DNA from: Staphylococcus phage BSwM-KMM1
Sequence record: OP902294.1
DNA length: 64,000 nt
Direction: 5' to 3' (one strand)
Within the stretch, counting starts at the first letter, position 1. Every line of letters begins with the position of its first letter. A program made the translations under genes and the position numbers. The notes under the pieces were generated by a model that saw nothing but the letters and a program-made list of their open reading frames with translations, searched no databases and was not told the origin of the DNA. Positions 5,044 to 60,596 of the stretch are shown here, one piece after another.

Positions 5044-5074
5044 TAGTAAGCCTACACTAGTCCGTGTTATATTA
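5044..5074 (+). promoter_or_regulatory. candidate late promoter TAGTAA-N18-TGTTATATTA
   Basis: Member of the recurring motif class (see findings). Embedded in the loop of an imperfect hairpin formed by 5049-5056 AAGCCTAC and 5092-5099 GTAGGCTT. Confidence 0.4.
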
Positions 5075-5209
5075 ATAATGAATCGGATAAGCGTAGGCTT
5101 TATTAATATTTAAAAAGGAAGGTACATCATATTATGGCTGAAGAAATTAAAAAGAACAAGAAGTACAAGAGCAAGAAACTACGAAAGAAGATAAAAAGAT
5201 GTTAGTAAA

Positions 5210-5596
5210 ATGACACCTGAAGAAATAGATGAATTAAAATATCAAGATAGAAAAGAAAAAGAAAAAGTTATTAACAAAGTTATCAAAGGTGTTAATGATA
5301 CTTGGGAAAAAGAGTATAACTTCGAAGAATTAGATTTAAGATTTAAAGTTAAAATTAAATTACCTAATGCACGAGAACAAGGTAACATCTTTGCATTACG
5401 TTCTGCTTACTTAGGTGGTATGGATATGTACCAAACAGACCAAGTAATTAGAGCTTACCAAATGTTAGCTACATTACAAGAGGTAGGTATTGAAGTTCCT
5501 AAAGAATTCCAAGACCCTGACGAAATTTATAACTTATATCCTTTAACTGTTATGTATGAAGATTGGTTAGGTTTCCTAAACTCCTTTCGTTACTAA
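5210..5596 (+). CDS. hypothetical protein; possibly the first of a tail-assembly chaperone pair
   Basis: 128-aa ORF with no good RBS of its own. A well-RBSed ATG at 5134 (AAGGAAGG) opens a 23-codon frame, MAEEIKK.... With one extra A in the run at 5148-5152 this becomes a 26-codon ORF ending in a TGA that overlaps this ATG (ATGA). Confidence 0.4.
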   Translation: MTPEEIDELKYQDRKEKEKVINKVIKGVNDTWEKEYNFEELDLRFKVKIKLPNAREQGNIFALRSAYLGGMDMYQTDQVIRAYQMLATLQEVGIEVPKEFQDPDEIYNLYPLTVMYEDWLGFLNSFRY

Positions 5597-5639
5597 TAGT
5601 ATAGAAACACTAGATAAAGATATAGAACGTTTAGGTGGA

Positions 5640-6176
5640 ATGCAGTCCATTGTTAAACAACCTTTATCTAGGAATCTTTGGGCTATTATGAAAGAGTTTA
5701 ATGTGTTACCTACCGAACAAAGATTTAAGGACTTAGATGACTATCAAATAGAGTTTATAATTGGTAACATGAACAGAGATGTTTATGAGTATAATAAACA
5801 ACTTAAACAAGCTCAAAAAGGTGGAAAATACGACAGTCAATTCGAAGATGATGATAATAGTTGGTGGAATGAATCTCATGAAGACTTTGACCCAGTACCT
5901 GATTTCTTAGACGCAGAGGACTTAGCACAACAGATGGAAGCTAAATTATCTGATAGAGATAAGGAAGAAAGAGCTAAGAGAAATGATGCAGAGTTAAATG
6001 ATGAAACAGAAGGACTTACTACACAACATCTTGCTATGATGGAATACATTAGAAGAAAGCAAGAAGAGTTAGATGATGAAGTAGGAAACGGTAAGACTAG
6101 TGAAGACGATGCTACTATATCACAGGATAGCGTTAATAAAGCATTAGAAGATTTAGATGATGATTGGTATATGTAA
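5640..6176 (+). CDS. acidic protein, putative tail assembly chaperone
   Basis: 178 aa and very acidic (DDDNSWWNESHEDFDPVPDFLDAEDL..., EDLDDDWYM C-terminus). Lies immediately upstream of the tape-measure gene, the canonical chaperone position. Confidence 0.35.
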   Translation: MQSIVKQPLSRNLWAIMKEFNVLPTEQRFKDLDDYQIEFIIGNMNRDVYEYNKQLKQAQKGGKYDSQFEDDDNSWWNESHEDFDPVPDFLDAEDLAQQMEAKLSDRDKEERAKRNDAELNDETEGLTTQHLAMMEYIRRKQEELDDEVGNGKTSEDDATISQDSVNKALEDLDDDWYM

Positions 6177-6226
6177 AGGGTGGTAGGTGATACTACCATC
6201 CTTATTTTTTAAATGGATGGTGAATA

Positions 6227-9200
6227 ATGATGGCAATGAATGACGATTATAGATTGGTCTTATCCGGTGATAGTTCAGATTTAGAGAATAGTCTGAAGGC
6301 TATAGAACTTTATATGGACTCTTTAGAGGCTAAAGATATTGATGCCCCTTTAGATAATTTCTTGAAGAAATTAAAAGTAATTGCTAAAGAAGTTAAAAAT
6401 GTACAGAATGCAATGGATAAACAGGAAGGTAAATCTGTAGTATCTGCTAAAGATATGGATGAGACCATTAAATCTACTCAATCTGCTACGAAACAAATAA
6501 ATGAGTTGCAGAAAGCTTTAGACGACCTTCAAAAAGAAAATATATCTAAAGGTATAGCACCTGACCCTGAAGTTGAAAAAGCATACGCTAAGATGAACAA
6601 AGTTGTTAAAGAGACTAGTGAAAATCTTAGTAATATGTCTAACCAAAAAATAGGTTCGGATGCTAGTATTCAAAATAGAATTAAAGAACAGAAAGTATTA
6701 AATAAAGTAACTGAAGAATACAATAAAATAAGTAAAGACTCTAGTTCTACCCAAGATTATACTAAAAGACTAAGAGCTAATCGTAACATGACTAGAGGGT
6801 ACATGGAACGTTCAGAAGGAACAGGACGTTTAACGTATGACCAAGGAGCAAGAGTTAGAAGTGAATTAGGTAAGGTAGATTCTTATGAAAGTCAAAGAAA
6901 ACAAAACCAACGTAACTTAACACAAGCAAGAGAACAGTATAGTAACTACGGAAATCAACAACAAGATTTGACGAAACGAAGAGCTAATGGTCAAATTAAT
7001 AAAGCCCAATATGAGCAAGAACTAGCTTCTATTAAACAAGAAATGAAAGCTAGAGAAGAACTTATAACTAACTATGAGAAATTAGGGGCTGAACTAGATA
7101 AAACTATTCAGTACTATAAAGGCTCAGTTCAGAAAGATTTTCAAACTAGAGATGTAGACCAACAACGAGGAACATTCGGTAGAATGGTTCAAGAGCGTTT
7201 ACCATCTATTGGTTCTCATGCTATGATGGGTACGACTGCCATGGCTACAGGTTTATATATGAAGGGTGCTTCATTAAGTGAGACAAATAGACCAATGGTT
7301 ACATCATTAGGTCAAAATTCAGACAATATGGATATAGATTCTGTAAGAAATGCATATGGGGACTTGTCAATTGATAACAAGTTAGGTTATAATAGTACTG
7401 ACATGTTGAAAATGGCTACTTCATATGAATCTTCTGTAGGACATAAAAGTGATGCGGAAACGGAAGCAGGAGCTAAACAACTTGCAATAGGGGGTCGTTC
7501 ATTAGGAATACAAGACCAAGAAGCTTACCAAGAGTCTATGGGTCAAATAATGCATACTGGTGGAGTAAATTCCGATAACATGAAGGAGATGCAAGATGCA
7601 TTCCTAGGTGGGATTAAACAATCAGGTATGGTTGGTCGTCAAGATGAACAACTTAAAGCATTAGGTTCTATAGCTGAGCAATCAGGAGAAGGAAGAACTT
7701 TAACTAAAGACCAAATGAGTAATCTTACCGCTATACAATCTACTTTTGCAGAGTCAGGAAGTAAAGGATTACAAGGTGAACAAGGTGCCAATGCTATTAA
7801 TAGTATAGACCAAGGACTTAAAAATGGTATGGATAGTTCTTATGCTCGTATAGCAATGGGATGGGGAACACAATACCAAGGTCTTGAAGGTGGATACGAT
7901 TTACAAAAACGTATGGATGAAGGAATATCTAATCCTGAAAACTTGACAGATATGTCTGATATGGCTACTCAAATGGGTGGCAGTGAAAAAGAACAAAAAT
8001 ACCTATTTAATAGAAGTATGAAAGAGATAGGTGCCAACCTTACTATGGAGCAATCTGATGAAATATTTAAAGATGCTCAATCCGGAAAACTATCTAAAGA
8101 AGAGTTAGCTAAAAAGCTAAGAAAATGGAAGAAGAAGGTAGTAAAGAAGGGAAGATAATGCCACTGATTATAAAGAATCTAAGTCAGGTAAAAATGACCA
8201 AAATAAAGCTAAGACCGATGATAAAGCAGAGGATACTTATGATATAGCCCAACCACTTAGAGATGCTCACAGTGCCCTGGCAGGTTTACCTGCACCTGTA
8301 TATCTAGCAATAGGTGCAATAGGGGCATTTACAGCTTCATTAATTGCATCAGCAGGTCAATTCGGAGCCGGACATCTAATTGGTAAAGGTGCTAAAGGCA
8401 TGAGAAACAAATGGAATGATAGAAAAGGAGGTAACTCAGGAGGCGGGATTGCTCCTGGCGGAGGCTCTCCTAAAGGAGGCGGGTCTCCTAAAGGTGGGGG
8501 AACTCGTTCTACAGGTGGTAAAATTCTCGATGGTGCTAAAGGATTAGGAGGATTCCTAATTGGAGCAGGGGTACTAGAGGAGCTAAAGATACCACTAAAA
8601 AGCTTTTGAAGGTACTAAAAAGTATTTAATAGAGATAATGGTAGAAAAGCTATGGATAAATCTAAAGATATAGCTAAAGGTACTGGTAGCGGGCTTAAAG
8701 ATTTATATAGTGGTAGTATACTAGGTAAAGAAAGAAGACAGAACCTAGGAGAGAAAGCTAAAGGACTATACGGTAAATTTGCTGATAAGTTTGGTGATGG
8801 AAGTAAAAATGGTATTCTATCACAATCACCTAACGCAGGAGGTAGTGGAATAGGTAAGTTAGGAAAACTTGCCGGAGGATTAGGAAAAGGTGCAGGACTC
8901 TTAGGAGTTGGAGCATCCGCACTATCTCTTATACCTGCTCTAGCATCAGGAGACGATAAAGCTATAGGCAAAGGCGTAGGCTCTATGGGTGGCGGAATGG
9001 CAGGTGCATCCGCAGGAGCTTCTATAGGAGCACTATTCGGAGGAGTAGGCGCAGTACCTGGAGCTTTAATAGGAGGAGCTGTCGGTTCTATCGGTGGAGG
9101 AGCTGTCGGTGAAAAAGTCGGAGATATGGCTAAAAGTGCAAACACTAAAGATGGGTGGAAATTATGGTCTAATGGAGACAAAGACGGTAAGAATAAATTC

Positions 9201-10208
9201 CAAGACTCTTTATTAGGTAAACCTATATCTAAAGCATGGAGTGGTGTAACAGGTCTCTTTGATAATGACGCTGAAGCATCTGAAGAAGATAGTAAAGATA
9301 AGAAAAAGGCGTTAAAGGTGTTAAAGGAGATACTAAGAAGAAAGAAAAAATGACAGCAGAACAACTTAGAGAAAAGAATAATCAATCTGAAACTAAGAAC
9401 CTTAAAATCTATAGTGACTTACTTGACAGAGCTCAGAAAATTATTGAGAGTGCTAAAGGTATAAATATAGACGGAGGAACATCTGATGGTGGTTCTGATA
9501 GCGGAGGCTCTGCATCTGATATAGGTGGAGAAGGCGCAGAGAAAATGTATAAGTTCCTAAAAGTAAAGACCTATCTGATAATCAGGTAGGAGCTATTATG
9601 GGTAACTTAAAACAAGAATCTAATTTAGACCCCAAAGCTGTTAACCAATCTAGTGGTGCATTTGGTATAGCCCAATGGATGGGAGATAGAAAAGCAGGGT
9701 TGGATAAATTTGCCAAAGAAAAAGGTAAAAGAATACTGACCTAGATGTACAGTTAGACTATCTATGGAAAGAGATGCAGTCCGACTATGAAAGTAACAAC
9801 CTCAAAAATGCAGGTTGGAGTAAGGACGCAAGCTTAGAGAAGAATACTAATGCATTTGCTACCGGATTTGAGCGTATGGGAGCAAATGAAGCTATGATGA
9901 GCACCCGTGTTAACAATGCTAAAGAATTCAAGAAGAAATACGGAGGCTCTGGTGGCGGAGGAGGTGGAGGAGCTCTATCTTCTACTTACCAAGAAGCTAT
10001 GAGTAACCCTGTATTAACTACCGGTTCTAATTATAAAGGCTCTAATGACGCTTCTAATGCCTCTACAACTAACAGAATAACAGTTAATGTTAACGTTCAA
10101 GGCGGAAATAATCCTGAAGAAACTGGAGACATTATCGGAGGAAGAATTAGAGAAGTTCTAGACAGTAATATGGATATATTTGCAAATGAATATAAGAGAA
10201 GTTATTAA
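6227..10208 (+). CDS. tail tape-measure protein, about 1327 aa, with an internal lysozyme-like domain (frame broken at least 5 times in this sequence)
   Basis: ORF fragments 6227-8158, 8160-8609, 8652-9353, 9350-9589, 9590-9745 and 9740-10208 read as one protein once single A deficits are restored at about 8150, 9345, 9565 and 9745. The 8400 and 8652 segments are in the same frame but separated by stops at 8607-8615, and I could not reconstruct that junction. The protein has a coiled-coil-rich N-terminus, Gly/Ala-rich low-complexity segments (GGGSPKGGGSPKGGG, GGSGGGGGGGA) and the segment GNLKQESNLDPKAVNQSSGAFGIAQWMGDRKAG typical of phage tail lysozyme-like domains. Confidence 0.75.
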
Positions 10209-10218
10209 TAATTTTGTA

Positions 10219-10247
10219 TTGACACAGGAGTAGTATCGTAGTATACT
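10219..10247 (+). promoter_or_regulatory. sigma-A-like promoter TTGACA-N17-TATACT
   Basis: Perfect hexamers (10219-10224 and 10242-10247) upstream of the tail lysin gene, whose RBS is AAAGGAAG. Confidence 0.6.
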
Positions 10248-10281
10248 ACTCTTATACATATAAAAAAATAAAAGGAAGTAT

Positions 10282-12714
10282 GTGTATATGCGTAGAATAA
10301 GAAGACCTAAGGTAAGAATAGAAATCGTTACAGATGATAATACATTTACATTACGCTTTGAAGATACAAGAGACTACAGCGGGGAAGAATTTGGAGCTAA
10401 GCTTTTAGGTTTCCAAACTAAAAACTCAATGGAAGATGATAGTTCTGTTTTCCAAATTAATATGGCAGGAGATACGTATTGGGATAAGTTAGTTATGGCT
10501 AATGACATAATCAGAATATTTATTACACCTAATGATGACCCTAACGATAAAGAAGGAAGACAAGAAAGGTTAATTCAAGTTGGAATGGTTTCACAAGTAT
10601 CAAAAGTAGGTAGCTATGGAAATGACCAAACTCAATTTAGAATAACCGGTCAATCTTTTGTAAAACCATTTATGAAATTTGGGTTAGGTGTTATTCAAGA
10701 GGTTCAAGCTGTACTTCCTGAAGTAGGTTGGCTTATTGACGGTGACGGAGATAATGAAGTTAAATTTACAGGTAGCTCGGCTCATGAAGTTATGACAGGT
10801 ATTATCCGTAGATTTGTCCCTTACATGAAGTATAATTATACTGAAAAGACATATAATACTATTGATAATTATCTTGACTATGATGATTTAAGTAGTTGGG
10901 ATGAGTTTGAAAACTTGACAGAAGTCTCTGCTTTCACTAATTTTGATGGGACGTTAAAACAGTTTATGGATATGGTAACAGCTAGACCTTTCAATGAATT
11001 ATTCTTTAAAAACTCAGAGAAAACACCTGGTAAGGCACAACTTGTTTTAAGAAAAACACCTTTCAACCCTACTGAGTGGAGAGCTCTTGACGTGATTAAA
11101 GTCCCTACAGAGGATTTTATTGAAGAGGATGTAGGTAAAAGTGATGTTGAAACATACTCTATATTTACAGCTACACCTGCAGGTATGTTAAAAGAACTTA
11201 ATGGTGATGTATTTTCTAAACCACAATTTCACCCTGAATTGACTGATAGATATGGGTATACTAAATTTGAAGTAGAAAATATCTATCTTAGTACTAAATC
11301 AGGTTCAGCTACTGAAGACTCAGATTCTTCGGGTGATGATAATGGTACTGAAAGAGGAACTTACTCTAAAATTATGAAAGATTTAAGTAACTATGGAAGA
11401 GATAATGTTTCTAAAGGTATAGATAAGTATACAAGTAAATTATCTTCAAAATATAAAAACTTAAAAAAGCCCAAGCTAAAAAAATTATAGAGAAGTTTGT
11501 CAAAGAAGGAAAAGTAACAGAAAAAGAATACGAGAAGATAACAGGGAATAAAGTAGATGATGAATTAACATCAGATAACAGACCGAAGTTGACAAAAGAT
11601 AAATTAAAGAGTATACTAAAAGAGGAGTTTAAAACACAAGATGATTTTAATAACTCTAAGAAAAAGAAAAAGCTAAGACAGATGCACTTAAAGAATTGAC
11701 AACTAAATATCGTTTTGGTAATAAAACACACGCTACAACTTTGCTAGATGAATATATTAAATACAAAGGAGAACCACCAAATGATGAGGCTTTAGATAAC
11801 TACTTAAAAGCTATTGAAGGTGTAAGTAACATAGCAACGGATACTGGTTCTGACGCAAGTGATAGCCCTTTAGCAATGTTCTCTCGTATGTTATTTAATT
11901 GGTATCATGGTAACCCTAACTTTTACGCAGGGGATATCATTGTACTAGGAGACCCTAAGTATGACCTTGGTAAGAGATTATTTATAGAAGACAAACAACG
12001 AGGAGATACATGGGAATTTTATATCGAATCCGTAGAACATAAGTTTGACTATAAACAAGGTTACTACACAACAGTAGGTGTTACTAGAGGACTAAAAGAT
12101 GCTATCCTTGAAAGTGGTAAAGGTAGTCCTCATAGATTTGCAGGTTTATGGAATCAGTCATCTGACTTCATGGGAGGTCTCATGGGAGAAGATACATCTA
12201 AAGAACTTAAAGAAAAAGGTGTGTCAGAGAAACAACAAAGCGGTGGAGATAAAGATGGTGGTTCTGATAGTGGGGGAGCCCAAGACGGAGGTTCTTTAAG
12301 CTCACTTAAGAAATTTAATGGTAAGCTACCTAAACATAACCCAAACTTTGTTCAACCAAATAACCGACATTACAAGTACCAATGTACTTGGTTTGCCTAT
12401 AATAGAAGAGGAGAGCTTGGTATTCCTGTACCTTTATGGGGGACGCTGCCGACTGGATTGGTGGGGCTAAAGGAGCAGGTTATGGGGTAGGTAGGACACC
12501 TAAACAAGGTGCCTGTGTTATTTGGCAACGAGGAGATAAAGGTGGCTCTAATGCTTATGGTCACGTTGCTTTCGTTGAGAAAGTTTTAGACGGTGGAAAG
12601 AAAATATTTATATCCGAGCATAACTGGGATACACCGAATGGTTATGGAACTAGAACAATAGATATGAGCTCTCAAATTGGTAAAGAAGCCCAATTTATTT
12701 ACGATAAAAAATAA
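10282..12714 (+). CDS. tail-associated cell-wall hydrolase with C-terminal CHAP domain (frame broken about 4 times)
   Basis: Fragments 10282-11490, 11490-11700, 11696-12490 and 12436-12714 join into one protein of about 810 aa when A-run deficits at about 11470 and about 11660 and a G-run deficit at 12428-12432 are corrected. The C-terminus carries a CHAP signature: a conserved Cys in QCTWFAYNRRGELGIPVPLWG and a His in GHVAFVEKV. Confidence 0.75.
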
Positions 12715-12727
12715 AGGAGGATAAGCT

Positions 12728-12871
12728 ATGGCAACAGATAAACAAGTTAAAGATATTATCGAAAAGTTTATAGATAATGTATTTAGTTTTGATGTACTAA
12801 CAATGGAAAAGGTAGCAGAGAAAGACGAAGAAGTCAAAAAATATCTGTTAATGACGTATATAACAAAGTAG
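12728..12871 (+). CDS. small hypothetical protein, or N-terminal part of the next gene if an A is missing at about 12866
   Basis: ATG preceded by AAAGGAGG. 47 codons ending in TAG, which overlaps the GTG of the 12871 ORF. Confidence 0.3.
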   Translation: MATDKQVKDIIEKFIDNVFSFDVLTMEKVAEKDEEVKKYLLMTYITK

Positions 12872-15450: not shown

Positions 15451-15524
15451 ACCCTTCTAATTCTACATTATGGTCAAGTAATTTATTAGAGGGAGTTACA
15501 AACCACTCAGCTAAGAAGCAAGGT

Positions 15525-18087: not shown

Positions 18088-18100
18088 ATAATAATTAAAA

Positions 18101-18127
18101 GGCTAACTAAAGTTAGTCTTTTTTTAG
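18101..18127 (+). terminator. rho-independent terminator
   Basis: GGCTAAC/GTTAGTC stem including one G-U pair, TAAA loop, then TTTTTTT. Confidence 0.6.
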
Positions 18128-18157
18128 TTGTAATTTAAACTAATTCGTGATATATTA
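18125..18157 (+). promoter_or_regulatory. candidate late promoter TAGTTG-N20-TGATATATTA
   Basis: Motif class shared with 5044, 23574 and 55957. About 45 nt upstream of the 18200 start. Confidence 0.45.
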
Positions 18158-18199: not shown

Positions 18200-18990
18200 A
18201 TGCCACAATCAGACGGAATAAGTAGCCTTCATAGAATAGCCTTACGTTTCCCTAAAGAGGGCGGTGGTTATGATATGTACAGATTTAAAGTAAACCCGGA
18301 AAACTATACTATAGATGCACCTCAACGTACAACAGCAATTAAAACAAAATCGGATATTGTGATAGAAGATTACGGTAAAGACATAGAAGTTATTAACTTC
18401 TCAGGTACTACTGGATTTAGACCAGTCAGAGAATCAAGTGGTTTGAAAACAGGTAAACAGAAAATGGAAGAACTACAAAGCAGAGTTAAAGAGTATGCAA
18501 TGCAAGGTGGAAGTGGTAACGTAAGCGGTTCTTACTTACAATTTTTAACTTTACAGATGATAGTTACTATAAAGTACATTTAGCACCCCAAGGATTAAAA
18601 ATAACTAGGTCTAAGGATGAGCCTTTACTCTTTAGATATGAGATAACCTTAGTAGTTATTGGTTCATTAACGGAGTCGGATAGAAGTGCTGTAACAACAG
18701 AAGAGTTTGGTAATATTAATCCTAATGCTTCACAGAGAGTTGACGAAGGTATGAAAGAATTAGATAAAAATGCCCGTAAGACTAGAGACAGAAACAATCA
18801 AGAAATATCTAGAAGAGAAAATACAATACCTAAATCTACCGGAGACAACACAAATGAGGGTAATAGACTAAAACAAAGCTTTCCTAGTAGTTCTATATAT
18901 AATCCTAGACAATCTACTAATGGATTAAAAGGGAACATTGATAACATGGCTCTAATAATAGGCTATGGTGATGGAGGTGTATCTAGTTAA
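18200..18990 (+). CDS. baseplate protein of about 263 aa (frame broken at a T-run at about 18545)
   Basis: ORFs 18200-18583 and the continuation ...FFNFTDDSYYKVHLAPQGLKITRSKDEPLLFRYEITLVVIGS... to 18990 join after a 1-nt fix. Size matches the 263-aa baseplate-region ORF of K-like phages. Confidence 0.5.
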
Positions 18991-19513
18991 TGAATAATTT
19001 TATAGCACAACCACAAGGTTTACTTAGATTTTTAAATGCTTTAGATACAGATTTAACTTCTTCTCATATGAATTTACTTGATGAAGAGGTATCATTTGTA
19101 TCTAGATTTTATACCCCACAGCTACAATTAAGTGAATTAGCAAAAACAGTATTGACAAGTATAAAGACAGATGATATACCTGTATTAGAGAGGAATTTAA
19201 TAATAACACTATTATCCATAAAGCAAATGATACATTGTTAAAAGTCCAAGCACCTAGAATGTATATGATTTTACAATCCATTGTACTTGAAGCATATGCT
19301 ATTGTTAATTGCTTTGTAGAAAACCCAAGTTCTTTGAAATATTTAACTGAAGATGATGTTAAAATAACACGAGAAAACTTGAATTATGTAGCAGATTATT
19401 TAGGTAACTATGATGACTACAATAGTGTTGTTCTAGATTTAAGAGATTTAGACTTATGTTTTAGTGCAATAGAATTACAACTACCTCTAATTAAAAAGGA
19501 GGCTAATGTATAA
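18990..19513 (+). CDS. baseplate wedge-like protein of about 174 aa (frame change at about 19238)
   Basis: ORFs 18990-19241 and 19235-19513 read as one protein of about 174 aa. Size and position match the small baseplate wedge subunit of Twort-like phages. ATGA overlap with the previous gene. Confidence 0.45.
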
Positions 19514-23535: not shown

Positions 23536-23559
23536 GTTGACAGAAAGTTAATAATATGG
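23531..23559 (+). promoter_or_regulatory. sigma-A-like promoter TTGACA-N17-TATACT
   Basis: Perfect hexamers. Followed by a 9-bp inverted repeat (ATGGTATAC ... GTATACCAT, 23552-23593) and a late-type motif TGTTATATTAATAA at 23594. Confidence 0.6.
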
Positions 23560-23573
23560 TATACTTAAAAAGT

Positions 23574-23603
23574 AATATTTAGTGGGTATACCATGTTATA
23601 TTA
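23574..23603 (+). promoter_or_regulatory. candidate late promoter TAGTGG-N17-TGTTATATTA
   Basis: Same bipartite motif as at 5044, 18125 and 55957. 35 nt upstream of the 23639 ATG. Confidence 0.45.
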
Positions 23604-23623: not shown

Positions 23624-24159
<536 letters not shown>

Positions 24160-24179: not shown

Positions 24180-27100
24180 ATGGCAATTAATTTTAAAGGT
24201 TCACCTTATTTAGATAGATTTGACCCATCTAAAGATAGAACAAAAGTATTATTTAATCCTGATAGACCTCTACAACAGGCAGAATTAAATGAAATGCAGT
24301 CTATAGACCAATATTATTTAAAAAATCTAGGAGACGCTATCTTTAAAGATGGAGATAAACAATCAGGACTTGGATTTACATTATCTCAAGACAATGTAGT
24401 AACAATAAACCCTGGTTATGTATATATTAACGGTAAAATACGATATTATGATAATGATGACTCAGTTAAAATAACTGGAGTAGGTAAAGAAACAATAGGT
24501 ATTAAGTTAACAGAACGTATTATAACACCTGATGAGGATGCTAGTTTACTAGACCAAACTAGTGGAGTACCAAGTTACTTTTCTAAAGGTGCAGATAGAC
24601 TAGAAGAAAAGATGACATTAACAGTTAACGACCCTACCTCAGCAACTATATATACCTTTATGGATGGAGACTTATACATCCAATCAACTAACGCTGAAAT
24701 GGAGAAAATCAATAAAGTGTTAGCTGAACGTACTTATGATGAGTCAGGTTCATATAAAGTAAGTGGCTTTGAGTTATTCTCAGAAGGCAATGCTGAATCT
24801 GATGACCATGTGTCTGTAGTTGTAGATGCAGGTAAAGCGTATGTAAAAGGTTTTAAAGTAGATAAACCAGTATCAACAAGAATTAGTGTGCCAAAATCTT
24901 ATGACTTAGGTACAGCAGAAAATGAAAGTACAATATTTAATAAATCTAATGACTCTATTAGTTTAGCTAATAGCCCAGTAAAAGAAATAAAACGTGTTAC
25001 AGGGCAAGTACTTGTTGAGAAAGAACGTGTTACGAGAGGTTCAACAGGGGATAGTCAAGACTACTTATCTAATAACACAGCATTTGAAATTGTAAAAGTT
25101 TGGACGGAAACAAGTCCAGGACAAACAACAAAAGAATATAAACAAGGGGAAGACTTTAGACTAACAGATGGTCAAACAATTGATTGGTCTCCTCAAGGAC
25201 AAGAACCTAGTGGAGGTACTTCATACTATGTATCATATAAATACAATAAACGTATGGAAGTTGGAACGGACTATGAAGTAACAACTCAAGGTGAAGGTTT
25301 AGGTAAGAGATGGTATATTAATTTTACCACTTCAAACGGAGTTAAACCTATTGACCAAACAGTAGTATTAGTAGATTATACCTACTATTTAGCTCGTAAA
25401 GATGCTGTATTTATTAACCAATACGGTGACATTGCAGTATTACCAGGTGAACCGAATATTATGAGATTGGTTACTCCACCTCTTAATAATGACCCTGAGA
25501 ACCTGCAGTTAGGTACAGTTACAATATTACCCGATTCAGATGAAGCAGTTTGTATTTCATTTGCAGTCACTAGATTATCTATGGAAGACTTACAGAAAGT
25601 TAAAACAAGAGTAGATAACTTAGAATACAATGAGGCAGTTAACGCTCTTGATGACGGGGCTATGGAAGGGCAAAACCCATTACACTTACGTTCAGTATTT
25701 AGTGAAGGTTTCATTAGTCTTGATAAATCAGATATTACACATCCTGACTTTGGTGTTGTATTTAGTTTCGAAGATGCAGAAGCTACTCTAGCGTATACAG
25801 AAGCAGTAAATCAACCTAAGATTATACCGGGAGATACAACAGCTCATGTTTGGGGTAGATTAATATCTGCACCATTTACAGAAGAGCGTACTATTTATCA
25901 AGGTCAAGCGTCAGAAGCATTAAACGTTAACCCTTATAATATCCCTAATAAACAAGGTGTATTGAAACTAACACCTAGTGAGGATAACTGGATTGATACA
26001 GAAAATGTAACAATAACAGAACAAAAAACTAAGAAAGTAACAATGAAACGATTTTGGAGACATAACGAAAGTTACTTTGGTGAAACAGAGCAAATGCTCT
26101 ATAATAACTTACAGTTAGATGCCGGACAAAAATGGGGTAACATGCAATCCAATGCAGGTGAAGCCTATCGTTATGATACAAAATATGGAAGAACAGGAAC
26201 AATGCTTACTTCAGGAGGACAACGTACTTTAGAAGAAATGATTGAATTTATTAGAATTCGAGACGTATCCTTTGAAGTTAAAGGTTTAAACCCTAATGAT
26301 AATAACTTATACCTATTATTTGATGGTGTAAGATGTCCTATTACACCTGCAACTGGTTATAGAAAAGGTTCTGAAGATGGAACTATTATGACAGATGCTA
26401 AAGGTACAGCTAAGGGTACATTTACTATTCCTGCAGGTATCCGTTGCGGTAACCGAGAAGTTACACTTAAAAATGCTAACTCTACAAGTGCTACAACTTA
26501 TACAGCCCAAGGACGTAAAAAATCGTTCAAGATATTATTATTAGAACTCGTGTAACAGTAAACTTAGTAGACCCATTAGCACAGTCATTCCAGTATGATG
26601 AAAACAGAACTATCTCATCATTAGGTTTATATTTTGCTTCTAAAGGAGATAAACAATCTAACGTTGTTATCCAAATTAGAGGTATGGGTGACCAAGGTTA
26701 CCCTAATAAAACAATCTATGCAGAGACAGTAATGAATGCGGATGATATTAAGGTATCTAACAATGCTAGTGCTGAAACTAGAGTATACTTTGATGACCCT
26801 ATGATGGCTGAAGGCGGTAAGGAATACGCTATTGTTATTATCACTGAGAACAGTGATTACACAATGTGGGTAGGTACTAGAACTAAGCCTAAGATTGATA
26901 AGCCTAATGAAGTAATTTCCGGTAACCCATATCTACAAGGTGTACTATTCAGTTCATCAAACGCATCAACATGGACTCCTCATCAAAACTCAGACCTTAA
27001 ATTTGGTATTTATACTTCTAAATTTAATGAAACAGCTACAATTGAGTTTGAACCAATTAAAGATGTGTCTGCAGATAGAATAGTTCTTATGTCTACGTAC

Positions 27101-51569: not shown

Positions 51570-51576
51570 AAAAGTA

Positions 51577-51604
51577 TTGACAAAAGGATAACTTATGTTA
51601 TACT
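51577..51604 (+). promoter_or_regulatory. sigma-A-like promoter TTGACA-N16-TATACT
   Basis: Lies 8 nt after the polA stop. Confidence 0.55.
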
Positions 51605-51636
51605 AGTTAAGTAATAAGTATAAGGAGGAAAAAGCA

Positions 51637-51879: not shown

Positions 51880-51892
51880 GAGGAACTGATAA

Positions 51893-52374: not shown

Positions 52375-52394
52375 AAAATAATTTAAAAATATAG

Positions 52395-52423
52395 TTGACA
52401 AACATACGGAAGTATGATACAAT
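52395..52423 (+). promoter_or_regulatory. sigma-A-like promoter TTGACA-N17-TACAAT
   Basis: Upstream of the 52460 ORF, whose RBS is AAAGGAGAAAAG. Confidence 0.55.
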
Positions 52424-52459
52424 AAATAAGTAAATTAATTAAAAGGAGAAAAGATAACT

Positions 52460-53638: not shown

Positions 53639-53643
53639 GATAT

Positions 53644-53670
53644 AGAGTGCCTGAGAGCACTCTTTTATTT
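53644..53670 (+). terminator. rho-independent terminator
   Basis: AGAGTGC/GCACTCT stem, 6-nt loop, then TTTTATTT. Confidence 0.7.
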
Positions 53671-53697
53671 AAGATACAATTATTAGGAGGACATTAA

Positions 53698-54956: not shown

Positions 54957-54959
54957 TAG

Positions 54960-55139
54960 ATGGATAATTTAATAGATAAAAATATGAACCAGGTAAGAGA
55001 ATCTTTGGGGAATGCAAATTCCTCAGATGTTCTTCCTTTACCTTATAAAGATATAGCAAAGAAATTTGAAGAAGTAAAAGAAAAGGTGAATCAATTATCA
55101 TTGAAGAAGGTGGATTCCCTTACACAGATTCTACAGTAA
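54960..55139 (+). CDS. small 59-aa protein
   Basis: MDNLIDKNMNQVRESLGNANSSDVLPLPYKDIAKKFEEVKEKVNQLSLKKVDSLTQILQ. Its stop overlaps the next ATG (TAATG). Confidence 0.3.
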   Translation: MDNLIDKNMNQVRESLGNANSSDVLPLPYKDIAKKFEEVKEKVNQLSLKKVDSLTQILQ

Positions 55140-55915
55140 TGTATATTGAACATGTAACTGATAGATGGGCGGGAGGATACTCCTTAATCAGACATGAAGG
55201 TGAAGAAGTTAAGGTACCTAAAACTATTCATTTCTCTGATATATATGTTAAGGATAAGTCACATAAAGTAAGAATAATCTTCGAGGGGCTAATCCTTATG
55301 AAGAAAGCTAGTAATGGTAATAGATACGTAGTAGATGTAGACGGTATCCCTGCTGATTTTGAAAGGGACTTAGATAGCCTACTTAACAGATATAAAAACC
55401 TTCGATGGGCATTATACCATAAGTATGCAGGGATATTATCGAACGATTTTGAAAGACAAGAGTTAAGAGAATACATTGATGAGCAATTTATTAAATTAGT
55501 TAAAGAATATAATATTAGAAGTAAAGTAGATTTCCCTGGATATATTAAAGCTAAACTAACTTTAAGAGTTCAAAATAGTTACGTTAAAAAGAATGAGAAG
55601 TATAAGCGTACTGAAATAATAGGTAAAAAGGATTATACAGTAGAATCACTAACAGAAGACTTAAATGAAGATTTTGAAGATAGTCAAATTATGAGTTATG
55701 TATTTGATGATATTGAATTTACAGAAATTCAAAGTGAGCTACTGAAAGAGTTACTTATTAACCCTGAAAGAGAAGACGATGCTTTTATAGTTTCTCAGGT
55801 AGCAGAGAAATTTGATATGAAGAGAAAAGAAGTAGCAAGTGAATTGACAGAGCTAAGAGATTATGTTAGATTTAAAATAAATGCATACCATGAGTACTAT
55901 GCTAAAAAGAATTAA
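55139..55915 (+). CDS. sigma-70-family-like transcription factor (candidate late sigma factor)
   Basis: 258-aa ORF. The middle segment FIKLVKEYNIRSKVDFPGYIKAKLTLRVQN resembles sigma region 2.2-2.4. The C-terminal IVSQVAEKFDMKRKEVASELTELRDYVRF resembles a region 4 HTH. Position after the RecA-like gene matches K-like phages. Confidence 0.5.
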   Translation: MYIEHVTDRWAGGYSLIRHEGEEVKVPKTIHFSDIYVKDKSHKVRIIFEGLILMKKASNGNRYVVDVDGIPADFERDLDSLLNRYKNLRWALYHKYAGILSNDFERQELREYIDEQFIKLVKEYNIRSKVDFPGYIKAKLTLRVQNSYVKKNEKYKRTEIIGKKDYTVESLTEDLNEDFEDSQIMSYVFDDIEFTEIQSELLKELLINPEREDDAFIVSQVAEKFDMKRKEVASELTELRDYVRFKINAYHEYYAKKN

Positions 55916-55956
55916 ATAACCATAAAGTTAATACTGAAAATCATATTTGGGAAAAC

Positions 55957-55986
55957 TAGTTACAGTGCCTTCCTTGTGTTATATTA
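55957..55986 (+). promoter_or_regulatory. candidate late promoter TAGTTA-N17-TGTTATATTA inside a long hairpin
   Basis: The motif class plus flanking stem TGCCTTCC (55966-55973) / GGAAGGC (56024-56030) followed by TTTTTCT. Upstream of structural gene 56086. Confidence 0.45.
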
Positions 55987-56085
55987 TTATCGAGAATTCA
56001 ATAATAAAGCATAGGGAAGGCTTTTTCTATGTCTTATAGAATGCTTTAAAATAGATTACTAAAATAAAGATTGGAGATTAAGCTT

Positions 56086-56718
56086 ATGGCTAAAAAGAAT
56101 GTTAATGATGTATTACAGCAAGAATCTGTTACAGTAGCAGATAAATATTTACAAGTTAAAGTTAACCGTGACGGTTATACTCGTACACATGAAGGACAAT
56201 ATGCGTACAAAGTAGTTTCAGAGGGAGAAGAGTTATTCTTATACCCTGTACAAACAGACGGTAAAGGTGTATTAAATATTATGAAGAAATCACCTATTGC
56301 TTACACTGATGGAGATAACATCCACTTTGTAGTAAATACAGTAGTAGACCCTTATAATCACTCATTTATCCGTACTGAAGATATTAAAGGTTTAGATAAA
56401 GGTAAACAACTTATTCAAGCTTTCTTAGCTTTCGTTGAAGACCGTTTCAAATTTGGTGTATATAACGTATTTGTTGCAAATAACAAAGAAGATGTCTTAT
56501 CTATTGTAGACCCTACAGATAATGATGCAGATGAAGTTAAAGATAGCCTGAAACACGCACATGAAGATGTAATTGCGGATTTCCCTGCTAGTCCTGCTCG
56601 TAAAGATGTTAAAGGTGTAGATTCAGGAGAAGGTCAAGGAGATACTTCAGAACCTTCAGTACCTGAAAATGTAACAGTAGAACCAACAGAAGACGGAGCA
56701 GACGTAACAGCAGAATAA
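56086..56718 (+). CDS. virion structural protein candidate
   Basis: ATG 56086 after GGAGATTAAG. About 210 aa with an acidic C-terminus TVEPTEDGADVTAE. Confidence 0.45.
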   Translation: MAKKNVNDVLQQESVTVADKYLQVKVNRDGYTRTHEGQYAYKVVSEGEELFLYPVQTDGKGVLNIMKKSPIAYTDGDNIHFVVNTVVDPYNHSFIRTEDIKGLDKGKQLIQAFLAFVEDRFKFGVYNVFVANNKEDVLSIVDPTDNDADEVKDSLKHAHEDVIADFPASPARKDVKGVDSGEGQGDTSEPSVPENVTVEPTEDGADVTAE

Positions 56719-56729
56719 TATAGTAAAGG

Positions 56730-57251
56730 ATGGTAAATTTGGCTAAGTTAAATTTATACAAAGGTAATGAGTTAGTAGACAGCGTAGAAAAAACAGAAGA
56801 AAAAACAACTATTACTATTGAAGGATTAGAGGCTAATACAGATTACCCTAAAGGTACTTATCAAGTATCATTCTCTAATGACTCAGGAGAGTCAGCAAAA
56901 GTAGATGTACCTCAGTTCAAGACAGATGCTATTGGTGTTGCTTCAGTTACCCTTGACGTTGAAAGTTTAGACTTAACAATCGGAGATACACATCAGTTAC
57001 AAGCTACAGTAGCCCCAAGTAATGCTTCTAATAGTAATGTATCTTTTAGTTCTGATGCAGAAGCTGTTGCTACTGTATCAGCTAGTGGGTTAGTTGAAGC
57101 AGTTACAGCAGGTACAGCTAATATTACAGTAACTACTGAAGATGGTAGTCATACAGATGCTGTTGCTGTAACAGTTAAGGAACCTATTCCTGATGCACCT
57201 ACAGATGTAACAGTAGACCCCGGTGAAAATACTGCAGATATTACTGCATAG
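56730..57251 (+). CDS. Ig-like (Big_2-type) domain protein, probable virion decoration/tail protein
   Basis: An N-terminal module of about 60 aa (KGNELVDSVEKTEEKTTITIEGLEANTDYPKGTYQVSFSNDSGESAKVDVPQF) followed by a Big_2-like segment VASVTLDVESLDLTIGDTHQLQATVAPSNASNSNVSFSSDAEAVATVSASGLVEAVTAGTANITVTTEDGSHTDAVAVTV. Confidence 0.55.
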   Translation: MVNLAKLNLYKGNELVDSVEKTEEKTTITIEGLEANTDYPKGTYQVSFSNDSGESAKVDVPQFKTDAIGVASVTLDVESLDLTIGDTHQLQATVAPSNASNSNVSFSSDAEAVATVSASGLVEAVTAGTANITVTTEDGSHTDAVAVTVKEPIPDAPTDVTVDPGENTADITA

Positions 57252-57265
57252 GAGGACACTAAAGA

Positions 57266-57499
57266 ATGGAAAAAACATTAAAAGTATATCAGAATGGTGA
57301 AGTTGTAGGCTCACAAGTAGCTAATGAAGATGGAGCTACAACAGTAACTATTACAGGTTTAGAAGCAGGAACAACATATGCTAAAGGAGACTTTAAAGTA
57401 GCCTTTGCTAATGATTCAGGTGAGTCAGAAAAAGCAGATGTACCTGAATTCACTACTACAGCCCCGGCAGAAGAACCTGAACCTGATACAGAAGCATAA
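57266..57499 (+). CDS. paralogue of the N-terminal module of the preceding protein
   Basis: 77 aa. GEVVGSQVANEDGATTVTITGLEAGTTYAKGDFKVAFANDSGESEKADVPEF aligns with the 56730 N-terminal module (same TITGLEA, NDSGES and VP.F blocks). Confidence 0.45.
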   Translation: MEKTLKVYQNGEVVGSQVANEDGATTVTITGLEAGTTYAKGDFKVAFANDSGESEKADVPEFTTTAPAEEPEPDTEA

Positions 57500-57514
57500 A
57501 GATTAAGACCAACT
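57488..57514 (+). terminator. rho-independent terminator (copy 2 of the cassette at 3451)
   Basis: Identical GACCAACT-AAAAA-AGTTGGTC-TTTTTT. Confidence 0.75.
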
Positions 57515-57515
57515 A

Positions 57516-57550
57516 AAAAAGTTGGTCTTTTTTATTGACAATATATAATA
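57516..57550 (+). promoter_or_regulatory. sigma-A-like promoter (TTGACA...TGGTACACT) following the cassette
   Basis: TTGACAATAT is identical to the 3479 copy. The downstream sequence diverges but both copies end in TATAAGAAT. Confidence 0.45.
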
Positions 57551-57593
57551 TCTATGGTACACTGTATAAGAATTAAGAAAAGGAGGGAAAGTA

Positions 57594-57853
57594 ATGGATA
57601 TTCCAACAATATTATTTAGAAATCCATATGATTACACAAAAGTAAAAAATTAATGGAAAGCAAAGAGCAGTACATTGTAGTAAAGTTTGATTCAGTTTCT
57701 GTTCATAACTTAAATGTTCAAGGTATGATGAACGTCATTCAAGATTACCTACACATTTATGGTTACAGAGTTAAAGAGTATGGTCAAGAAAATGCTTCTA
57801 AAGATGATGAAAGAGACGTTAAAGGTTACTTATACGAAAGAGTAGGTGACTAA
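57594..57853 (+). CDS. hypothetical protein of about 86 aa (A-run frame change at about 57645)
   Basis: ATG 57594 after AAAAGGAGGG. MDIPTILFRNPYDYTKVK(K)L then joins ORF 57653-57853. Confidence 0.4.
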
Positions 57854-57856
57854 GTT

Positions 57857-58297
57857 ATGCAAGTTATAGTAAATGCTAACCATGTCCAATCAAATACTAT
57901 TAGCGGTACCGAAGAATTTTTTAATATTATACAAGTAGATACTTTTAGAGAAGGATTACTGCAGATAGAGGATGAACCAACTGTACTAGCAGGATTTATA
58001 TATGATGATAAAATATTTAAAGATGCTGTAATTCAAGACCCTAGTATTCTGATGAACATTGAAGATAACGATATCCTATATGTATCAGATGTTGGTGTAT
58101 TACCAAATCCATTTGTTACTGTAGAAGAAGATAAAAAGTATTATTCACTATTACAACAAATTGTAGAATTAAGTAATGAAGACATACCTGAATCTATAGT
58201 AAGAGATTCAAAAGATTTAACTAGGTATTATAACTTTCAAGATTTTGAAGATGTATTCGATTTAAATAGAATTTATAAAAAGAAGTTGACACAGTAA
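57857..58297 (+). CDS. hypothetical protein
   Basis: 146-aa ORF. Acidic. Confidence 0.45.
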   Translation: MQVIVNANHVQSNTISGTEEFFNIIQVDTFREGLLQIEDEPTVLAGFIYDDKIFKDAVIQDPSILMNIEDNDILYVSDVGVLPNPFVTVEEDKKYYSLLQQIVELSNEDIPESIVRDSKDLTRYYNFQDFEDVFDLNRIYKKKLTQ

Positions 58298-58314
58298 AAG
58301 AAAAGTGCTATACT
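58286..58314 (+). promoter_or_regulatory. sigma-A-like promoter TTGACA-N17-TATACT
   Basis: Overlaps the 3' end of the 57857 ORF. Confidence 0.55.
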
Positions 58315-58610
58315 AATGGTAATGTATATTTATTATATGAAGTTCTGCCGGACTATAAACTACCTCTAGCCTATAGGTTACTTGAAGATAAGGAACATGG
58401 TATTGTTATTATAGGTTCACAGACACGTTCTAATAATGATATACTAACTTTTATGTTAAAGGTATGGATACTAAGTCAATAGCAAGTATGTTCGGGGTAG
58501 AGCATTACTCTAATTCTAATATATTTCATACATTCATAAATAGTCACATTAACATTTTAGGAAATCAAATAACTAATTTTATAAGAGAGAAAGGAAGCAG
58601 TTATGAGTAA
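58315..58610 (+). CDS. candidate small HTH DNA-binding protein (frame changes at about 58335 and about 58470)
   Basis: Three overlapping frame pieces read MVMY...EVLPDYKLPLAYRLLEDKEHGIVIIGSQTRSNNDILTFMLKGMDTKSIASMFGVEHYSNSNIFHTFINSHINILGNQITNFIREKGSSYE. The MDTKSIASMFGVEHYSNSNIFHTF segment has helix-turn-helix character. The stop overlaps the phosphoesterase ATG. Confidence 0.25.
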
Positions 58611-59853
58611 ATATAAAACAATAGAAGAAGTACAAGCAGTTATTATCGGGGTATTATTTAAAGATGAAGGAAAAATTGTAACATCTAAATTTAATAAGAT
58701 TACACGAGAATTTGGATTAGATAGAATAGGTAAAGATGACCTTAAAGAAATTGTAGAAGATATCAGGAAAGATGAATATCTAAATGAACTTAAGAATAAA
58801 GCAATTAAAGGTAAGGTAACCTTAGGAGACCTTAAAGATGTTGCAGATAACCAAGTATTTGAAGGTAATAACTACCATGAAGAAGTATCTACTTATGTAG
58901 TAGCTAAAGAGAAAGAGTTATCCCATTTAAGAGAACAACGTAAGCATAATAGACATACAGCTTACCCTCAAATTATGTTTGATGAGTTAAAAGAACATAT
59001 GGTAAAAGAATTACAAGGAGAGACATTAGTAGAGCATCATAGAAGCAAAGCTACTATTGATGATACAGAATTAATTGTATTACTATCAGACTTTCATATT
59101 GGTTCTATTGTGTCGGATATGACTAATGGTAAATATGATTTTGAGGTACTTAAGTCACGATTGAACCACTTTATTGATACTACAGTTAAGGAAATTGAAG
59201 ATAGAGAAATTTCTAATGTAACTGTTTATTTTGTTGGTGACTTAGTAGAACATATTAACATGAGAGATGTTAACCAGGCATTTGAAACAGAATTTACTTT
59301 AGCAGAACAAATTTCTAAGGGAACAAGATTACTTATTGATATTCTAAATGTACTATCTGATGTAGTTACAGGTGAACTAAGATTTGGTATTATCGGAGGT
59401 AACCATGACCGTATGCAAGGTAATAAGAATCAAAAGATTTACAATGATAACGTTGCTTATGTAGTACTAGATTCTTTATTACTATTCCAAGAGCAAGGGT
59501 TACTGAAAGGTATTAATATTATTGATAATAGAGAAGATATCTATACTATCAGAGATAACTTCGGAGGTAAATCTATTATTATTAACCATGGAGATGGTTT
59601 AAAAGGTAAAGGAAACCATATTAATAAGTTCATCTTAGATAGTCATATTGATTTACTTATTACAGGTCATGTGCACCATTTCTCAGTTAAACAAGAAGAC
59701 TTTAACAGAATGCATATTGTAGCTTCATCACCAATGGGCTATAATAACTATGCTAAAGAGTTACACCTATCAAAAACTAAACCATCACAGCAATTGTTAT
59801 TTGTGAATAAAGAAAATAAAGATATTGATATTAAAACAGTATTTTTAGATTAA
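58603..59853 (+). CDS. calcineurin-like metallophosphoesterase
   Basis: Ordered motifs LLSDFHIG (D-x-H), YFVGDLVEH (GD), GGNHDRM (GNHD), INHGDG and ITGHVHH (GH-x-H). 416 aa. Confidence 0.7.
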   Translation: MSKYKTIEEVQAVIIGVLFKDEGKIVTSKFNKITREFGLDRIGKDDLKEIVEDIRKDEYLNELKNKAIKGKVTLGDLKDVADNQVFEGNNYHEEVSTYVVAKEKELSHLREQRKHNRHTAYPQIMFDELKEHMVKELQGETLVEHHRSKATIDDTELIVLLSDFHIGSIVSDMTNGKYDFEVLKSRLNHFIDTTVKEIEDREISNVTVYFVGDLVEHINMRDVNQAFETEFTLAEQISKGTRLLIDILNVLSDVVTGELRFGIIGGNHDRMQGNKNQKIYNDNVAYVVLDSLLLFQEQGLLKGINIIDNREDIYTIRDNFGGKSIIINHGDGLKGKGNHINKFILDSHIDLLITGHVHHFSVKQEDFNRMHIVASSPMGYNNYAKELHLSKTKPSQQLLFVNKENKDIDIKTVFLD

Positions 59854-59866
59854 GGATGATTAACAA

Positions 59867-60235
59867 ATGGATACAATATTTATTATAAGTGTAGCATTTA
59901 TTACCTTTGCTACTTTTAACATAATTTTTAGATTGTTTGATTTATGGACTACCGAGAAGAAAATGGTAAGCCAAGGACAACCACCACTAAGTAACTTTGA
60001 GTACTATCATGTGATAGTACCCTACTTAGTAGGAGTATTTGTTATTCTACTAAGTATTATCCTTAGAGATTCTCTATACTCAGCCCAATCAGGGTTCGGA
60101 ATTATTATTACAAGTTTTATTTATATGCTAGTTTATGTTATAATTGGTCTTGCAGGGTCATTTATACTTACAATATTCCAAGCTAGGAAAGCTAGACAGT
60201 ATCAAACGCAGGAGGATAATAATGAAGTTCAATGA
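59867..60235 (+). CDS. small integral membrane protein
   Basis: 122 aa with 3-4 predicted hydrophobic helices (IFIISVAFITFATFNIIF, VPYLVGVFVILLSIIL, IIITSFIYMLVYVIIGLAGSFILTIF). Confidence 0.5.
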   Translation: MDTIFIISVAFITFATFNIIFRLFDLWTTEKKMVSQGQPPLSNFEYYHVIVPYLVGVFVILLSIILRDSLYSAQSGFGIIITSFIYMLVYVIIGLAGSFILTIFQARKARQYQTQEDNNEVQ

Positions 60236-60533
60236 TATTTATGAGCAACTGATTAAGAATGATACAGTACAGAATGTACATGAGTCTCAAGACGATAAAG
60301 GAAATATATATACCGTTCAATTTGATAAAGGTAATGATAAATACCTATTTAACATTATTAATGATGGTTTCCTAAAAGAAATGACGAACGGTATGATAGA
60401 CCATCCGGAAGGGCAACCATACTCAGTAAGTTTAATTAATAAAGAAACACCTAGTATGTCGGTGAAACAATATTTAACAGATGTAGAAGATATTGTACCT
60501 ACTATTAGAAAAATGGAAAAGGATTTCTTATAG
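60222..60533 (+). CDS. hypothetical protein
   Basis: ATG 60222 after AGGAGGATAATA. 103 aa. The track's earlier 60144 start has no RBS. Confidence 0.45.
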   Translation: MKFNDIYEQLIKNDTVQNVHESQDDKGNIYTVQFDKGNDKYLFNIINDGFLKEMTNGMIDHPEGQPYSVSLINKETPSMSVKQYLTDVEDIVPTIRKMEKDFL

Positions 60534-60559
60534 AGTCAAGTCTTTACTTGACTCTTTTT
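60533..60559 (+). terminator. rho-independent terminator whose 3' arm doubles as a -35 box
   Basis: GAGTCAAG/CTTGACTC stem, TCTTTA loop, then TTTTT. TTGACT (60548-60553) sits 17 bp upstream of TGGTATATTAATA at 60568-60580. Confidence 0.65.
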
Positions 60560-60596
60560 ACTATATATGGTATATTAATATAGAGGTGAATTAAAA

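Follow-up and report, generated by a model that had tools for sequence, protein, structure and literature searches.

Probable Kayvirus-Class Late Promoters in Staphylococcus Phage BSwM-KMM1

A 64,000-nucleotide stretch of the genome of Staphylococcus phage BSwM-KMM1 (sequence record OP902294.1; hereafter the window) carries several copies of a 10-nt box, TGNTATATTA, which an earlier sequence-only reading had taken for the downstream half of a bipartite late promoter with a TAGT motif as its upstream half. The present analysis leads to a different assignment, held with a probability of about 0.85. According to this assignment, the exact TGTTATATTA copies at positions 175, 5065, and 55977, and probably the one at 23594, represent late promoters of the Kayvirus class, the TG(A/G)TATATTA copies at 18148 and 60568 belong to the sigma-A type, and the TAGT motif is incidental. 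The TGTTATATTA box as such is already known: it is the published Kayvirus late promoter, which belongs to a second promoter class that has no -35 element and is used late in infection. Two parts of the assignment we infer: recognition of the box by a phage sigma factor, and activity of the promoters in BSwM-KMM1.

Abundance of the Box and the Published Late Class

The box is far more abundant in the window than expected by chance. TGNTATATTA occurs eight times on the + strand (at 175, 5065, 18148, 23594, 25311, 55977, 60568, and 63415), and no copy was found on the - strand of the window. Dinucleotide shuffles of the whole window contained 3.2 copies on average, and eight or more copies appeared in one of 100 shuffles. 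Under a first-order model of intergenic DNA, 0.18 copies would be expected in the intergenic regions of the + strand, where six are observed (Poisson P ~5e-8). The exact TGTTATATTA is present four times (175, 5065, 23594, and 55977), always on the + strand, and its three intergenic copies compare with 0.055 expected (P ~3e-5). All four exact copies have a G at +6 after the box. When -35 hexamers were searched for at a distance of 16-18 bp, the exact boxes scored within the random range (3/6 matching positions for 5065, 1/6 for 23594, 3/6 for 55977, and 4/6 for 175); the same scoring gave 5/6 (TTGACT at 60548) and 4/6 (TTGTAA at 18128) for two of the looser copies. At each of the six coordinates given for the box by the sequence-only reading the quoted sequence is indeed present, and the gene annotation agrees with the claim that tail, baseplate, and structural genes lie downstream.

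Judged by its sequence, the window is part of a Kayvirus-like staphylococcal myophage. It is collinear throughout with positions 56400-122618 of vB_SauM-515A1 (Kayvirus, Herelleviridae; hereafter 515A1) at ~87% identity, lacking the introns of the latter and with them the late promoter pL154. Nearly every gene of the window lies on the + strand, and its base composition is 68% A+T. A 3-kb probe from the window matched 292 Staphylococcus phage records, with phages PG-2021_19 and PG-2021_86 at the top (98.5%). Searches for related loci with single proteins yielded 3-12 loci each, and more distant relatives were taken from a phage collection; L numbers designate related loci in the comparisons below.

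On the basis of coverage steps in RNA sequencing (RNA-seq) data, 58 promoters of 515A1 were classified as early sigma-A promoters and 12 as late (Kornienko et al., 2020, PMC7698491). The late class of this phage is characterized by the long -10 box TGTTATATTA, the complete absence of -35 boxes, and a putative initiating G 6 bp downstream, and the late sites are silent at 5-15 min, while the sigma-A promoters are active (PMC7698491). RNA-seq of phage K recovered the same late class, and gp117, which is homologous to SPO1 gp34, was named as its probable sigma factor (Finstrlova et al., 2022, PMC9241854). In the Listeria phage CKA15, ONT-cappable-seq found TDTGCTATATTA or TGCTATATTA at late start sites, again without a -35 box (2025, PMC12282133). 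All three studies ascribe the late class to a phage gp34-like sigma factor, by inference only (PMC7698491, PMC9241854, PMC12282133).

Position 3 of the box is T or C in 11/12 late promoters of 515A1, the exception being pL83 with a G and an atypical TATAATA; the sigma-A promoters of this phage that match TGNTATATTA have G or A at this position. Position 3 may serve to separate late from sigma-A promoters, as a rule that is usable but not universal (the post-sigma site of Baoshanvirus has an A). The late class should be scanned for as TG(T/C)TATATTA without a -35 box, instead of TG(N) plus TAGT, and box matches that do have a -35 box should be treated as sigma-A promoters. The early/late dichotomy proposed from the DNA holds in so far as RNA-seq on 515A1 and phage K demonstrates a second, late class without -35 boxes; it does not hold for some of the copies listed in its support, which are sigma-A promoters. 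The split can be read from the DNA, and this helps when therapeutic Kayvirus phages are annotated or engineered. Since RNA-seq established it in 2020-2022 and the extension to Listeria followed in 2025, the finding adds nothing new.

Assignment of Individual Sites

The eight copies of the box were assigned as follows.

175..184, + strand: late box TGTTATATTA within the neck-protein gene; orthologue of the published late promoter pL102.
5065..5074, + strand: late box TGTTATATTA; orthologue of pL110 (515A1) and of promoter 46 (phage K, late); predicted start G at 5080.
23594..23603, + strand: probable late box TGTTATATTA, 36 nt 5' of a baseplate gene (bmpC homologue) and right after the sigma-A promoter 23537-23565 (p121).
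55977..55986, + strand: late box TGTTATATTA; orthologue of pL158 (515A1) and of promoter 61 (phage K, late); predicted start G at 55992.
18128..18157, + strand: sigma-A promoter TTGTAA-N17-TATATT, TG-extended (TGA); orthologue of p116 and of phage K promoter 49, early or middle.
60548..60576, + strand: sigma-A promoter TTGACT-N17-TATATT, TG-extended (TGG); orthologue of p166 and of phage K promoter 63, middle.
63415..63424, + strand: TGATATATTA without a good -35 box, 110 nt 5' of a structural-protein gene; unclassified.
25311..25320, + strand: TGGTATATTA deep in a coding region, with no published counterpart; most likely a chance match.

For three of the late boxes the correspondence with published promoters extends beyond the box itself. 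The 30-nt context of the copy at 175 (GCTAGAGAAT TGTTATATTA TAGATGAAGT) is identical to pL102 in Table S2 of PMC7698491, the context of 55977 is identical to pL158, and that of 5065 differs from pL110 by one base. The promoter at 5065 precedes the gene of the tail assembly chaperone (phrog_1038) and the tape-measure operon, and genes for an Ig-domain structural protein and the major tail protein follow 55977. The box at 23594 is kept in the diverged lineage L021. An inverted repeat at this site (ATGGTATAC/GTATACCAT) was considered as an RNA hairpin and discarded, because its 5' arm overlaps the sigma-A -10 box and would not be transcribed from that promoter.

The pooling of all copies into one TG(N) motif could not be upheld. 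At both 18148 and 60568, a -35 box of the sigma-A type is present with a 17-bp spacer, and both RNA-seq studies place these two sites among the early or middle promoters; 18148 was assigned to sigma-A instead of the late class because both RNA-seq tables list it as a sigma-A promoter, and a promoter scan independently called 60548-60576 as sigma-70 type. In these two sigma-A promoters, the extended -10 happens to read TATATTA. The promoter at 18128-18157 is preceded by a terminator at 18097-18122. At the corresponding position, in front of the gene for the tail tube initiator, a terminator is followed in other genera of the Twortvirinae (L024-L028) by a late box (TGCTATATTA or TGTTATATTA) and, 35 nt beyond the box, by a distinct sigma-A promoter; in Kayvirus there is one hybrid element, TTGTAA-N17-TGATATATTA (window 18097-18157).

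The copy at 63415 is kept in 515A1 and is missing from the promoter lists of both RNA-seq studies (515A1 and phage K). It lies in a segment of ~570 nt free of open reading frames (ORFs; 62955-63525), which is 94% identical to 515A1 versus ~87% overall and also holds a leader of ~110 nt. In phage K, RNA-seq located a middle start at about 63290-63318 in window terms (PMC9241854). The leader that follows 63415 folds barely better than shuffled sequences (z -1.9) and has no Rfam match.

The Phage Sigma Factor as Candidate Reader of the Box

A late promoter of this class consists of the 10-nt extended -10-type box without a -35 element, with initiation at the G 6 nt downstream. Host core RNA polymerase equipped with the two-domain gp34-like sigma factor of the phage would read these boxes, and the small protein encoded just upstream of the sigma gene may assist, as does gp33 in SPO1. 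In this way, the genes for the tail, the baseplate, and further virion components would be turned on in the late phase. The two genes concerned are the following.

55298..55915, + strand: sigma gene (gp34-like, phrog_1025), C-terminus truncated by a 1-nt deletion; the intact reading ends with the TAG at 55957-55959.
54960..55311, + strand: small gene (phrog_1089, homologue of 515A1 gp156), which overlaps the sigma start and is broken by two 1-nt homopolymer deletions.

A sigma-like protein had been proposed at 55139-55915. PHROGs confirms the sigma factor but the start was misplaced, since the true gene begins at 55298 and the longer ORF is an artefact of homopolymer deletions: compared to 515A1, 1-nt deletions in an A-run and a G-run fuse the tail of the small upstream gene to the sigma frame. 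A third 1-nt deletion shortens the C-terminus of the sigma factor. The bmpC homologue (baseplate, 23639-24159), the tail tube initiator (18200-19241), and the tape-measure gene (6227-9353) likewise seem to be divided among several ORFs. The disrupted genes (54960-55959, 23639-24159, 18200-19241, and 6227-9353) most likely result from errors in sequencing or assembly.

Homologues of the sigma factor have 218-220 amino acids (aa) and were detected by tblastn in 746 phage records, with Staphylococcus, Bacillus, Enterococcus, Listeria, Lactobacillus, and Brochothrix as hosts and hits annotated as "sigma GP34 factor". The identification rests on PHROGs, a remote BLASTP similarity to SPO1-type gp34, and a fold search. 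BLASTP aligned the protein with the 197-aa gp34-type protein of SPO1L4 (E 5e-13, 39% identity over the N-terminal 80 aa), and it found no alignment between the C-terminal halves of the window sigma and SPO1-type gp34; searches of the Pfam, NCBIfam, and PDB sequences with the sigma factor gave no significant match. An AlphaFold model of moderate confidence (predicted local distance difference test, pLDDT, 68.5) consists of two helical domains, the C-terminal one being sigma-4-like. The best 50 PDB matches listed in the fold search are all sigma factors (ECF, FliA, SigB, and SigA), with probabilities of up to 0.99 and weak E values of 0.03-0.5, and the alignments with the ECF, FliA, and SigB structures are 165-245 columns long.

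The small gene sits where gene 33 is located in SPO1, and the same order is found in the Listeria, Enterococcus, and Bacillus relatives. The conserved succession is recombinase, small gene, sigma gene, and then either a holin or an Ig-like structural gene. The similarity of the small protein to an SPO1-type protein of 101 aa is not significant (E 0.4). Directly 3' of the sigma gene, the box was found in Kayvirus, Silviavirus, a Sepunavirus-like lineage, Twort, Baoshanvirus, and in Listeria, Enterococcus, and Bacillus phages, the form in the last three groups being TGCTATATTA. Across the nine lineages compared, this post-sigma box varies little or not at all; in six further records it was exact in four, had one mismatch in one, and was absent from one. 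The family-wide co-occurrence of sigma gene and box supports, but does not prove, the assignment of the box to the phage sigma. It appears plausible from these sequence comparisons that the gp34-like sigma reads the box.

Weighing the Alternatives

According to the bipartite model, TAGT(A/T)(A/G) ~17-20 bp upstream would act as a -35-like element that is read together with the TG-extended TATATT. We regard this as very improbable. TAGT does occur upstream of all four copies chosen (starting at 5044, 18125, 23580, and 55957), at 5044 and 55957 exactly in the position of a -35 hexamer (spacers 18 and 17), and the sigma-4-like domain in the sigma model would suit such an element. A 4-mer shared by four random intergenic sites in the same offset range was obtained in 0.8% of trials, a rare event for which sites, word, and range had all been picked post hoc. 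However, the distances between TAGT and TG measure 17, 19, 10, and 16 nt instead of the claimed 17-20, the third copy (whose start was put 6 nt too early, at 23574) reads TAGTGG and breaks the claimed consensus, and a strict search for TAGT-N17-22-TGNTATATTA gives two matches in the window. The proposed architecture also fails among the published late promoters, as 10/12 lack TAGT in the -35 region; the two that have it (pL110 and pL158, both within the window) compare with ~0.8 expected by chance. At the pL158 orthologues of eight other lineages the box is kept and TAGT is missing, so that the window's lineage is the only one of nine to have it, and TAGT is missing from the pL110 orthologue L018 as well. 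No conserved columns exist upstream of -4 among the published late promoters, no 4- or 5-mer is enriched in the region -40..-1 of 13 late sites (best raw P 0.003 over 456 tests), and three independent transcriptome papers report no -35 element (PMC7698491, PMC9241854, PMC12282133). CTAG and the SPO1-like CGTTAGA were tried as other upstream elements, and neither is enriched in the 13 late sites. Furthermore, individual TAGT copies have other explanations. The TAG at 55957-55959 terminates the sigma gene (GAA AAC TAG in 515A1), where the other Twortvirinae lineages have TAA as the stop codon; TAGTAA at 5044 forms the base of a terminator stem and pairs with the T-rich tail; and TAGT at 18125 overlaps the -35 box (TAGTTGTAA) of the early or middle sigma-A promoter. 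Because TAGT is rare in the published late promoters and unconserved, because no upstream k-mer is enriched, and because the copies are otherwise explained, the bipartite model was rejected, and TAGT would be incidental sequence and not a promoter element.

A less remote alternative, though still an unlikely one, is that the boxes are extended -10 promoters of sigma-A and owe their lateness to another cause, such as modification of the holoenzyme, an activator, or coupling to replication. TGnTATATT fits the extended -10 consensus of sigma-A at 8/9 specified positions, and boxes accompanied by a -35 box constitute the early or middle promoters p33, p116, p166, and p175. The phage sigma factor is so far a candidate reader of the box, and the loss of late expression in host rpoC mutants would be compatible with any factor binding to beta-prime (PMC11598898). 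Against this explanation, the late sites do not fire at 5-15 min, a period in which sigma-A promoters do (PMC7698491). The positions outside the sigma-A consensus (T/C at 3 and A at 10) are conserved in the late class and across subfamilies, and throughout the Herelleviridae the box accompanies the gp34-like sigma gene. The gp34 protein of SPO1 is an established late sigma factor, which also speaks against sigma-A as the reader. That the matches are mere chance products of an AT-rich genome can practically be dismissed: the base composition of the window and the copy at 25311, which is inside a gene and looks accidental, would be in line with it, but the enrichment, strand bias, and intergenic location of the box are not, nor is its conservation across genera within otherwise diverged spacers.

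Several points weigh against the assignment to the Kayvirus late class. Activity of the sites in BSwM-KMM1 would be carried over from relatives that are ~87% identical. The site at 23594 is a perfect consensus, yet its equivalent "before the gene bmpC" showed no expression step in 515A1 (PMC7698491). According to a 2024 study of phage K, late promoter function is still not understood (PMC11598898). In addition, the box is also a near-perfect extended -10 of sigma-A (TGnTATAtT), and the sigma-4-like C-terminal domain predicted by the AlphaFold model could permit a -35-type contact.

Late Boxes Nested in Terminator Hairpins

Two of the late boxes are located inside terminator hairpins, one of which is followed by a very short ORF.

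5044..5106, + strand: terminator hairpin, orthologue of t109, whose 5' strand contains the late box; RNAfold free energy (dG) -23.8, z -5.6.
55967..56026, + strand: terminator hairpin with T-run (orthologue of t157) and the late box in its 5' strand; RNAfold dG -25.4, z -5.1.
56029-56049, + strand: mini-ORF of six codons (MSYRML) after the Shine-Dalgarno-like 3' arm and the T-run of the pL158 hairpin.

The terminators t109 and t157 are listed in Table S3 of PMC7698491, and the published tables give overlaps for t75/pL74, t109/pL110, and t157/pL158. Terminator t75 of 515A1, which holds pL74, represents a third nested case. A word search of the main text of PMC7698491 found no discussion of the overlap between promoters and terminators, and a literature search for promoters inside terminator hairpins, with older reviews outside its reach, returned nothing relevant. 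An Rfam scan of the window detected no RNA family.

Hairpins orthologous to the one behind the sigma gene, with different stems, are present in Silviavirus (L006, StAP1, PM93), the Sepunavirus-like L007, L010, and Enterococcus phages of two genera. The nested late box was seen at window positions 5044-5106 and 55967-56026 and at L006, L007, L010, L032, and L035-L038. Between the Kochikohdavirus and Schiekvirus hairpins six stem positions differ, all of them compensated, and the loop is identical; among the Twortvirinae hairpins, stem positions 5-7 vary between lineages. This covariation was read from individual folds, as a MAFFT alignment of the hairpins of five lineages lost the stem register, and it comes without a formal pair count. 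Twort has an ordinary terminator just 5' of the box, and folding revealed no strong hairpin at the post-sigma box in Baoshanvirus, Listeria phages, or Bacillus phage BSP18.

The predicted late starts of the 5065 and 55977 sites fall near the hairpin apex. A late RNA starting there would lack the 5' arm and hence escape termination. In L007, L010, and the Enterococcus phages, a holin gene (phrog_263) uses the 3' arm of the hairpin as its Shine-Dalgarno sequence; the corresponding arm of the Kayvirus pL74 hairpin precedes holA, and that of the hairpin at 55967-56026 contains the Shine-Dalgarno-like GGGAAGG. From these sequence features a two-level "late only" lock on lysis and virion genes can be proposed, tentatively and at slightly less than even odds: RNA arriving from early or middle units upstream would fold and stop, late-start RNA devoid of the 5' arm would run on, and, as the 3' arm would be the ribosome-binding site of the holin in the Sepunavirus-like lineage, L010, the Enterococcus phages, and for Kayvirus holA, any read-through RNA would have this site masked. 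If functional, the nested arrangement would explain how late genes, above all holins, are insulated from early read-through. In the window no holin gene exists at the pL158 position, where related genera have one, but only the mini-ORF, which looks like the vestige of a lost holin.

A sigma-A-like promoter, TTGATT-N16-TGC-TATACT, is situated at 5006-5033 directly 5' of the pL110 hairpin and is absent from both RNA-seq lists; if active, it would yield only a short terminated RNA of ~65 nt. It is also frequent for -35 hexamers of sigma-A promoters to lie inside terminator hairpins. Elsewhere in the window, TTGACT, the -35 box of 60548-60576, lies within the 3' arm of the terminator 60532-60555. 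At least seven terminators of 515A1 contain TTGACA (t48, t60, t69, t129, t194, t198, and t204), and t112 and t142 also overlap promoters (Table S3, PMC7698491). In these genomes, overlapping terminators and promoters seem to be a widespread feature.

Comparison with Known Systems

The late promoters of phage T4 (TATAAATA) are read by gp55 together with gp33 and the gp45 clamp. They resemble the sites in the window, which would likewise be long -10-only promoters read by a phage sigma factor on the host core polymerase. However, the box sequence is different, and gp55 is truncated and lacks a sigma-4 domain, whereas the sigma factor of the window is modeled with two domains. We know of no clamp dependence for Kayvirus-type late promoters, unlike those of T4. 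In SPO1, gp33 and gp34 recognize late promoters with the consensus CGTTAGA-N18-GATATT. This system shares with the window a homologous sigma factor, a small overlapping gene before the sigma gene, and a -10 element rich in ATATT, but it has a conserved -35 element, which is missing from the window-type sites (13 late sites and nine orthologous sites).

Closer still is the P100-like Listeria phage CKA15 (PMC12282133), with TDTGCTATATTA at its late starts, no -35 box, and a gp34-like sigma factor in the genome; it differs by a C instead of T at position 3 of the box and belongs to another subfamily (Jasinkavirinae). Nothing essential separates the sites of BSwM-KMM1, a phage ~87% identical to 515A1, from the Kayvirus late promoters of 515A1 and phage K, which have the same box TGTTATATTA, no -35 element, a G start 6 nt downstream, and the same downstream genes.

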